DNA of 63,608 nucleotides, counting the filler, from Craspedostauros australis (taxonomy: Eukaryota), in NCBI GenBank assembly GCA_030167865.1. It is 19 parts of 19 records of this genome, joined end to end, with 100 filler letters (N's around TTAATTAATTAA, not from the genome) between each part and the next. Parts side by side here need not be neighbours in the genome. Positions count along the whole stretch, not along the records: positions 47,433 to 49,815 come from JALAGF010000522.1; 18 more parts are not named here. One strand, given 5' to 3'. Both the position numbers and the translations under genes were made by a program. This document shows, piece by piece, positions 48,141 through 49,815 of the stretch. The notes under the pieces were generated by a model. It had not been told where the DNA came from. It ran no database searches and saw nothing but the letters and a program-made list of their open reading frames with translations. Positions within the stretch are counted from its first letter, which is position 1; each line of letters begins with the position of its first letter.

Positions 48141-48163
48141 TAATGATCCTTCCGCAGGTTCAC

Positions 48164-48358
48164 CTGTAGATCGGAAGAGTAAGGTAGTGGTCATGGTGTG
48201 GTTGGGATTGGGATGGGATGGGAAGGAGAGTGTGAGATTTGGGTTCGGTTGACATCAGGTTTCGCATGGACTCCTCATGTGCTTATCTGTCTGCATATGT
48301 ATGTGTATATGTGTATGTATGTATGTATGTATGTATGTATGTGAATTGTGTTACGTAC
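48164..48358 (-). other. Spliceosomal-type intron in 18S (195 nt)
   Basis: CCGTAG|GTACGT...CTACAG|GTGAAC. Confidence 0.93.
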
Positions 48359-48504
48359 CTACGGAAACCTTGTTACGACTTCACCTTCCTCTAAATGATA
48401 AGGTTTAGGCAAGTTCTCGCAACCAACTCNCAATGAAGGGAACTAATCGCAATCCCGAGACTTCACCGGACCATTCAATCGGTAGGTGCGACGGGCGGTG
48501 TGTA

Positions 48505-48750
48505 CTGTAGATCGTAGATGGGTGTGTGGATGGGTGTTAGGGTGTTAGGGTGGATGGGTGGATGACAGAGGAGAGGAATGGAGGTTAGTGTTTGGTCAGT
48601 GAATTTGATTCTTATTGTTACGGTGTGGTCATGCAAGTTCCATCTTTCATTTCTTGAGAACAAATGGACGGATGCAAGGTAGAGGCTGATGTGGACAAGT
48701 CACAATGACGCCAACAATAGTTGATGCCGACAAGATAGAGTCTTTCTTAC
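48505..48750 (-). other. Spliceosomal-type intron in 18S (246 nt)
   Basis: CCTTTG|GTAAGA...CTACAG|TACACA. Confidence 0.93.
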
Positions 48751-48774
48751 CAAAGGGCAGGGACGTAATCAATG

Positions 48775-48967
48775 CTGTGATTGTAGAAGTGAACGTTTGA
48801 CGTGTGGTGTGTAGGCGGCGGAGAGGGAAGGAGGGATCGTGTGAGCGAAATTGAATCGAATTCGGTTGAGTGGGAGTGTGTCAAGCTGTCGTCTGTGGGT
48901 GGGTGCTGTTGGCACTAGACTAGACTGAACTAGACTAGACTAGACTAGACTAGAGTAATGTACTTAC
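48775..48967 (-). other. Spliceosomal-type intron in 18S (193 nt)
   Basis: AGGCTG|GTAAGT...TCACAG|CATTGA. Confidence 0.93.
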
Positions 48968-49125
48968 CAGCCTGATGAGCTGCGTTTACTAGGAATTCCT
49001 CGTTCAAGATTAATAATTGCAATAATCTATCCCTATCACGATGCACGTTCAAAAGATTGCCCAGGCCTCTCGGCCAAGGTAGAACTCGTTGAATGCATCA
49101 GTGTAGCGCGCGTGCGGCCCAGAAC

Positions 49126-49278
49126 CTGTTAGTGTTTGAGAGTGAGTTGGAGTGGAGTGGAGTGGAATGAATAGTGGATGGGAGGGAGGTTTGTGTGAGT
49201 ATGTGTTGTGTGCTTGAATGCTACGATAATCAGGAGAATGTCGGGAGTGTCGGGAATGTCGGATATGTTGTTACTTAC
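49126..49278 (-). other. Spliceosomal-type intron in 18S (153 nt)
   Basis: TTAGAT|GTAAGT...TAACAG|GTTCTG. Confidence 0.93.
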
Positions 49279-49297
49279 ATCTAAGGGCATCACAGAC

Positions 49298-49506
49298 CTA
49301 AGGTATCGAGAGAAGGTCATTTATTATAACATTGGGTAGGATGAGGTGTGGAAGGGGAAAGGAGAGAAGCGTGAGATGAGAGACTGGGCTCGTAAAGTCG
49401 ATCATGCCAGCAATGGAATGCAAGGCATCCGAGTGATGGTGTACTATTGTGTACTGTAATTCAGAATCATGCATTCAGAATCATGCATTCATGCATTCAT
49501 GCTTAC
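49298..49506 (-). other. Spliceosomal-type intron in 18S (209 nt)
   Basis: TAACAG|GTAAGC...CCTTAG|GTCTGT. Confidence 0.93.
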
Positions 49507-49647
49507 CTGTTATTGCCCCTATCTTCCTGCATCTAATAGAATGCACGTCCCTCTAAGAAGTGTCACCCAATGAAGATTCATTCGGCACACTATTTAGCAG
49601 GCAGGGGTCTCGTTCGTTAACGGAATAAACCAGACAAATCACTTCAC

Positions 49648-49815
49648 CTGTTGTTCGTCGGAGGGGGGAGTGGAGTTTAGCATACAGAGATTGTAGAGGG
49701 ATAAAAGAAGGAGAGAGTTAGATCAGATGATTGTTTACTTCCATCGTGTCCTGACATCAAGAGATGTGCTAGACAAAAGGTCTCTCTGATCGTAAACTGA
49801 GCAACAAGAAGTTGC
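49648..49815 (-). other. Sixth 18S intron, 3' part only (at least 168 nt)
   Basis: rRNA similarity is lost at ...CAACAG|GTGAAGTGATTTGTC; CTAAC and a pyrimidine tract lie upstream; the donor is beyond the contig end. Confidence 0.8.

Follow-up and report, generated by a model that had tools for sequence, protein, structure and literature searches.

The 63,608-nucleotide (nt) stretch of the Craspedostauros australis assembly analysed here (the window) carries, on the minus strand of a 2,383-nt contig at positions 47433-49815, a piece of ribosomal DNA (rDNA) that runs from the 3' end of the 18S ribosomal RNA (rRNA) gene through internal transcribed spacer 1 (ITS1) and the 5.8S rRNA gene into a partial ITS2. 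We consider it probable that this is a fragment of diatom nuclear rDNA whose 18S gene is interrupted by at least six spliceosomal-like introns of the U2 type (GT-AG). From the architecture of the DNA, the anatomy of the splice signals, the lack of a group I core and the constraint on the exons, all of which are read directly in the sequence, we infer that the transcript is freed of these introns and its exons joined, the spliceosome being the most likely agent. The spliceosomal-type reading had been put forward in the initial annotation of this DNA, and it is supported by the donors, the AG-free tails, the lack of group I matches, the restored helix, the 5.8S gene and the compensatory changes relative to L001, an intron-bearing rDNA contig from a metagenome.

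Structure of the interrupted 18S rRNA gene

The boundaries between exons and introns were set by a script on the minus strand, and the segments are listed below from high to low window coordinates. Model positions are those of the Rfam small-subunit rRNA (SSU) family RF01960 (1,831 positions), unless another family is named.

49648-49815, minus strand: intron A, 3' part, 168 nt visible (truncated by the contig end), ending in CGAACAACAG; model site 1300/1301; AG-free tail of 88 nt
49507-49647, minus strand: 18S exon 1, 141 nt; model 1301-1459, variable region V7 included
49298-49506, minus strand: intron B, 209 nt, GTAAGC..CCTTAG; site 1459/1460; tandem repeats at 49459-49502
49279-49297, minus strand: 18S micro-exon, 19 nt; model 1460-1478; 100% identity to L001
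49126-49278, minus strand: intron C, 153 nt, GTAAGT..TAACAG; site 1478/1479
48968-49125, minus strand: 18S exon, 158 nt; model 1479-1638, V8 included; 78 bits alone; 98.7% identity to L001
48775-48967, minus strand: intron D, 193 nt, GTAAGT..TCACAG; site 1638/1639, within the 3' strand of the GCAGC/GCUGC helix; (ACTAG)n at 48914-48954
48751-48774, minus strand: 18S micro-exon, 24 nt; model 1639-1662
48505-48750, minus strand: intron E, 246 nt, GTAAGA..CTACAG; site 1662/1663, between CCCTTTG and TACACACC; the same site as that of L001 intron L3
48359-48504, minus strand: 18S exon 5, 146 nt; model 1663-1808 (helix 44, V9); 96.8 bits; a single N at 48430
48164-48358, minus strand: intron F, 195 nt, GTACGT..CTACAG; site 1808/1809, in the 5' strand of helix 45; (TATG)n at 48296-48342; site and donor hexamer the same as in L001 intron L4
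48141-48163, minus strand: terminal 18S exon, 23 nt; model 1809-1831; ends in GGATCATTA
47831-48140, minus strand: ITS1, 310 nt, between the 18S end and the 5.8S start
47676-47830, minus strand: 5.8S rRNA gene, full length; RF00002, 163.4 bits, model 1-154
47433-47675, minus strand: 5' part of ITS2, truncated by the contig end

The exons (141 + 19 + 158 + 24 + 146 + 23 nt) make up 511 nt of 18S and are contiguous on RF01960: they cover model positions 1301-1831, and the inserts appear as gaps in the alignment. Three of the introns (A, D and F) interrupt strands of helices, and intron E lies at the base of helix 44, at a site which we take, from sequence landmarks, to be that between G1392 and U1393 of E. 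coli.

The insert lengths given in the initial annotation (at least 168, 209, 153, 193, 246 and 195 nt) were reproduced by the boundary script, and re-reading of the minus strand returned the same five donors and six YAG acceptors. The annotation also held that removal of the inserts restores the gene with no base gained or lost; the RF01960 alignment bears this out for introns B-F, while the contig ends before the upstream junction of A is reached. Pairing of the GCAGC/GCUGC helix, said to be kept, is restored across intron D in the Rfam alignment, and the 5.8S gene, described as intact, gave the full-length match listed above. As to the E. coli equivalents proposed for the insertion sites, they are approximate, and 1392 and 1514 alone agree with known landmarks.

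Splice signals and sequence of the inserts

All of the five visible 5' ends of the inserts are GT (GTAAGC, GTAAGT, GTAAGT, GTAAGA and GTACGT in introns B-F), and all of the six 3' ends are YAG (CAG, TAG, CAG, CAG, CAG and CAG, from A to F). The extended donor consensus of spliceosomal introns is GTRAGT-like and complementary to U1, in agreement with the donors given in PMC6306197, and the donors of the window, being GTRAGT-like or GTACGT, fit it. The chance of meeting GT in five of five and AG in six of six cases is about (1/16)^11, a figure to be relaxed somewhat, as there is a freedom of 2-4 nt in placing the boundaries of B, C and F; a chance origin of the GT-AG ends together with the restored conserved 18S sequence is not plausible. 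Ahead of the 3' splice site each of the six introns has an AG-free tract of 84-109 nt, as predicted by the choice of the first AG downstream of the branch point; in shuffled sequences the medians are 18-43 nt (P 0.02-0.23 per intron). The G content of the 3' halves is merely 1-9% in all six, and the four introns of L001 have a polarity like that of the window introns.

Microsatellites are present in all five complete introns and are absent from the exons, the ITS sequences and the 5.8S gene. Seven arrays lie between window positions 48203 and 49502, one or two per complete intron, e.g. (TATG)12, (ACTAG)8 and a 14-mer repeated 2.4 times. An introner-like family would comprise many near-identical copies across a genome; within the 63.6-kb window, no copies of the introns were found elsewhere, apart from a single microsatellite match. 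Nor are the introns copies of one another: short 3' tails are their sole common sequence, and the last 10 nt are identical in introns E and F. Judging from their sequence, the inserts evolve fast and act like unconstrained filler.

Group I introns follow a 5' exon ending in U, themselves end in G and share a conserved P3-P8 core. The Rfam scan of positions 47430-49820 gave no match to group I (RF00028) or any other intron family at E<=1, and that of L001 gave no intron family or ribozyme at E<=0.1. The last base of the 5' exon is G before introns B, D, E and F and T before intron C, so that U precedes C alone. Group I identity was rejected on both counts, there being no core in the window or in L001 and four of the five 5' exons not ending in U. 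Plus-strand matches to microRNAs and small nucleolar RNAs (mir-297, snoU13 and others) were set aside too, as they are below threshold and due to the (TATG)n repeat or to antisense 18S.

A related intron-bearing gene and constraint on the exons

Scanning of metagenome contigs with the 19-nt exon stretch yielded four loci, among which L001 alone contains rRNA; L002-L004 were rejected as chance 19-mer matches with no rRNA. Patterns made of exon plus donor gave no matches for site F in the genome contigs and viral contigs and none for site E in the genome contigs. L001 is 88-100% identical to the window in the exons and 95% identical in 5.8S, and its 18S gene, on the minus strand, carries four GT-AG inserts:

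L1, L001: 211 nt
L2, L001 2922-2339: 584 nt; model site 1279/1280
L3, L001: 218 nt; exactly at site E
L4, L001 1612-1044: 569 nt; exactly at site F, with the unusual GTACGT donor of window intron F

At sites B, C and D L001 has no inserts. The introns occupying the same sites in the two genes cannot be aligned with each other (z 1.0 for E and L3, -1.6 for F and L4), and orthology of the introns by sequence was rejected on this ground. The tails of intron A and L2 are alike over 17 nt (z 6.3), and such likeness may reflect either paralogy of the introns or a common splicing signal. A C/A-rich tail, CCTCC-R-AC-R-AACAACAG, is nearly alike at three 18S sites (window 49648-49664, L001 2355-2339 and L001 3045-3029).

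The comparison of constraint covers two sequences, those of the window and L001. In exon 1 there are 17 differences between them over 140 positions; five compensatory pairs account for ten of these, two are one-sided changes with the pairing kept and five are unpaired, so that no pair is broken. When the pairing partners were offset by 1-3 columns as a control, no compensatory pairs were obtained, and the Rfam consensus structure, which is independent of this comparison, also pairs at least four of the five by our reading. The seven differences in exon 5 again break no pair, and the aligned exons match the consensus wherever it is strongly conserved. The 18S lineage of the window and L001 thus appears to be fast-evolving yet structurally maintained, and both intron-bearing genes seem, by this comparison, to evolve as functional rRNA; if they evolve as working rRNA, their inserts must be removed. 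Two local changes were also seen: both genes have GUGAAGUGAUUU (window 49647-49620, L001 2318-2290) where the SSU consensus is GUGgaGUGAuc, which is a G-C pair compensated to A-U, and in the next hairpin of L001 a G-C pair is turned into C-G.

As for the removal, the pre-rRNA would be transcribed with its introns; these would then be excised and the flanking exons joined, and the most likely agent is the ordinary spliceosome, working on a transcript of RNA polymerase I (Pol I). Splicing would have to come before the folding of the 3' major and 3' minor domains, since three introns (A, D and F) split strands of helices and a fourth, E, is at the base of helix 44. Exons of 19, 24 and 23 nt being too short for two simultaneous spliceosomes, the introns would be removed stepwise.

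Homing-endonuclease genes in L001

Two of the L001 introns contain intact antisense open reading frames (ORFs), one in L2 (2462-2881, plus strand, 139 amino acids) and one in L4 (1190-1606, plus strand, 138 amino acids). Both match PF05551, the zinc-binding region of His-Cys box homing endonucleases (50.5 and 38.2 bits, cutoff 27), and both align, although weakly (E 0.065-0.12), with I-PpoI across the catalytic motif; the His, Cys and Asn columns of SHxC..C.N..HL..E..N..RK.C..C.H..C are invariant in three of three sequences. The two ORFs are 32% identical to each other, and a word-based protein search returned the query ORF itself and a single relative with 55% identity. L2 and L4 have a common layout, in which the donor is followed by 6-41 nt, the antisense ORF (about 420 nt), an AG-free tail of 123-146 nt and the acceptor, so that the sequence beyond the ORF comes to about 150-165 nt. 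In the window, no endonuclease gene or remnant was detected by tblastn at E<=10 over 48141-49815. We know of no report of a homing endonuclease inside a spliceosomal-type intron; the literature known to us shows the reverse nesting, i.e., small spliceosomal introns within the endonuclease genes of group I introns, and His-Cys box enzymes are, to our knowledge, otherwise found in nuclear group I introns.

These genes lead us to a tentative and rather doubtful proposal, namely that the spliceosomal-type introns of diatom rDNA might be, or descend from, homing elements, each a GT-AG intron carrying an antisense His-Cys endonuclease gene. Copies of the rDNA that lack the intron would be cut by the enzyme at a conserved site and would receive the intron during repair; the six short, microsatellite-filled introns of the window would be endonuclease-free remnants of such invasions. 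An origin of this kind would account for both the density of these introns and their placement in the most conserved parts of 18S.

Comparison with known rDNA introns

Multiple spliceosomal-type introns, though rare, are already known in diatom 18S genes, and the gene in the window adds another case. According to the study of Chaetocerotaceae (Gaonkar et al., 2018; PMC6306197), 18S of this family has 17 spliceosomal-intron sites, with 9-11 introns in single genes; introns occur in its 28S rDNA as well, and they show presence/absence polymorphism within individuals. The initial annotation, which called the intron density of the 18S gene extreme, overstated it and its novelty in view of these published genes: the local density (six introns in 511 nt) is somewhat above the published cases, not of another order. 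The likeness to the Chaetocerotaceae extends to many short GT..AG inserts, whose donor is usually GTAAGT and which have a CT-rich tract and end in YAG (PMC6306197). The window introns are longer, 153-246 nt against the typical 96-199 nt (PMC6306197), and the host differs, the nearest named relatives of an SRP54 gene in the window (see below) being raphid pennates and not Chaetoceros. With F anchored on the published site 19 (1760-1761), the distance is 1 nt between E and site 18, 1 nt between B and site 16 and 2 nt between A and site 15, so that four of the six sites come within 0-2 nt of published ones; C and D have no counterpart in Table 1 of PMC6306197. These correspondences are offset arithmetic and not alignment. 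The published sites fall in the targets of the V9 forward and reverse primers (PMC6306197), and a further paper places an intron site in the target of the Medlin reverse primer (PMC11007259), which fits site F. Spliceosomal 18S introns are reported from a pennate diatom too, Olifantiella (Han et al., 2018, as cited in PMC6306197). Two other papers, PMC11019260 and PMC8070900, concern organellar introns only.

Group I introns with His-Cys genes of the I-PpoI type resemble the present introns in occupying conserved rRNA sites and, as regards two L001 introns, in having antisense endonuclease genes. They differ in that the inserts of the window and L001 are without a ribozyme core and have GT-AG ends, and in that most of the 5' exons of the window do not end in U (four of five). 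Bhattacharya and co-workers reportedly described, in 2000, spliceosomal rDNA introns of lichen-forming ascomycetes. The ascomycete introns are similar to ours in being GT-AG introns of Pol I-transcribed rRNA genes that are absent from the mature rRNA; they differ in being fungal, much shorter (the one tested has 57 nt), few per gene and accompanied by many group I introns (PMC8527467). The same work shows by experiment that a lichen spliceosomal intron, once inserted into the rDNA of yeast, is removed there, which sets a precedent for the spliceosome processing Pol I transcripts (PMC8527467).

Alternative explanations and genomic context

Several observations weigh against the spliceosomal interpretation. 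Branch motifs in the window introns are weak YTNAY candidates only; the rDNA contig, merely 2.4 kb long, is unplaced and artificially joined to its neighbours; the upstream junction of intron A is outside the contig; and L2 of L001 lies 21 nt upstream of site A, so that orthology of the two introns would mean that 21 nt of helix 34 are missing in the window. The contig, short and unplaced as it is, could represent a silent or minority rDNA variant, i.e., a pseudogene or orphan copy that has accumulated insertions, with the 18S rRNA made by intron-free repeats. The hidden junction of A fits this possibility, the likeness of the A and L2 tails leaves room for a 21-nt exon deletion, and the published polymorphism within individuals points in the same direction (PMC6306197). 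On the other hand, a decaying copy would not be expected to show compensatory changes relative to L001 with no broken pairs, and the precise GT-AG ends and AG-free tails of the inserts, the match at all consensus-conserved exon positions and the intact 5.8S gene speak against it as well. As to the tails of A and L2, we take their likeness to reflect a common tail motif rather than orthology, because L1 and L2 of L001, situated at different sites, have the same type of tail (z 7.2). A silent copy is therefore, in our estimation, an unlikely explanation.

It is still less likely that the introns are real and the contig comes from a co-sequenced organism, such as another diatom in the culture or sample. 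The window consists of some twenty small contigs joined by artificial 100-nt linkers (N44-TTAATTAATTAA-N44, e.g., at 47333-47432 and 49816-49915), so neighbouring features are not physically linked, and nothing ties the rDNA contig to its neighbours. For an intronless SRP54 gene on a neighbouring contig (37172-38941, plus strand), the nearest named relatives are all diatoms: identity is 69-71% to the raphid pennates Fistulifera, Epithemia and Seminavis and lower to Thalassiosirales; metagenome proteins reach 76-80%, and there was no 100% match in the protein collection searched, from which the host genome seems to be missing. This affinity, which counts against a foreign source, fits an rDNA that belongs to the host, although it is not a proof. 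Moreover, the rDNA is diatom-like, close to L001 and in agreement with the published diatom pattern, and the Rfam scan found no second rDNA type in the window.

Removal without the spliceosome, whether by excision of spacers that leaves a fragmented 18S rRNA or by an unrecognised ribozyme or endonuclease-ligase pathway, appears most improbable. It is favoured by rRNA being an uncapped nucleolar Pol I transcript and by the Chaetocerotaceae literature consulted, in which a role of the spliceosome in diatoms is not demonstrated (PMC6306197). Against it, the inserts have GT-AG ends, donors complementary to U1 and tails that exclude AG, all as spliceosomal selection of the 3' site predicts; free rRNA fragments of just 19-24 nt would be unusual; the Rfam scan gave no group I match; and yeast spliceosomes excise such an intron from rRNA (PMC8527467).

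The remainder of the window is rich in retroelement sequence, with long ORFs bearing an RVT_2 domain (Copia-type reverse transcriptase) at 8144-12754 and 15686-17884, both on the minus strand. No securely spliced protein gene was identified in this transposon-rich window, in which 220 ORFs look spurious. The contig standing beside the rDNA contig in the window has a 988-amino-acid ORF (44309-47275, minus strand) that contains PT repeats and weakly matches DUF7640. Among the sequencing runs listed in a screen by sampled words, one contains 0.47 of the words and sixteen contain 0.11-0.13, figures that carry no weight as evidence here.

Significance

In textbooks the spliceosome is tied to Pol II transcripts, and spliceosomal introns in rRNA genes transcribed by Pol I break that link; their mechanism is not known to have been studied in diatoms. 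The locus described here is a compact test case: it has six introns and three micro-exons (19-24 nt), some of the introns being placed in helix 45 and at the base of the decoding centre, and it suits the question of how splicing fits into ribosome assembly. Introns E and F lie within the standard primer targets for V9 and the 18S end, and DNA metabarcoding would therefore miss such taxa (PMC6306197 and PMC11007259).

The novelty of the intron arrangement itself is modest, and the lead given by the homing-endonuclease genes of L001 is the more noteworthy part of this work. Those genes suggest that the introns may spread by homing. If confirmed, GT-AG introns bearing endonuclease genes would give a concrete mechanism for both the invasion of rDNA by such introns and their persistence in it.

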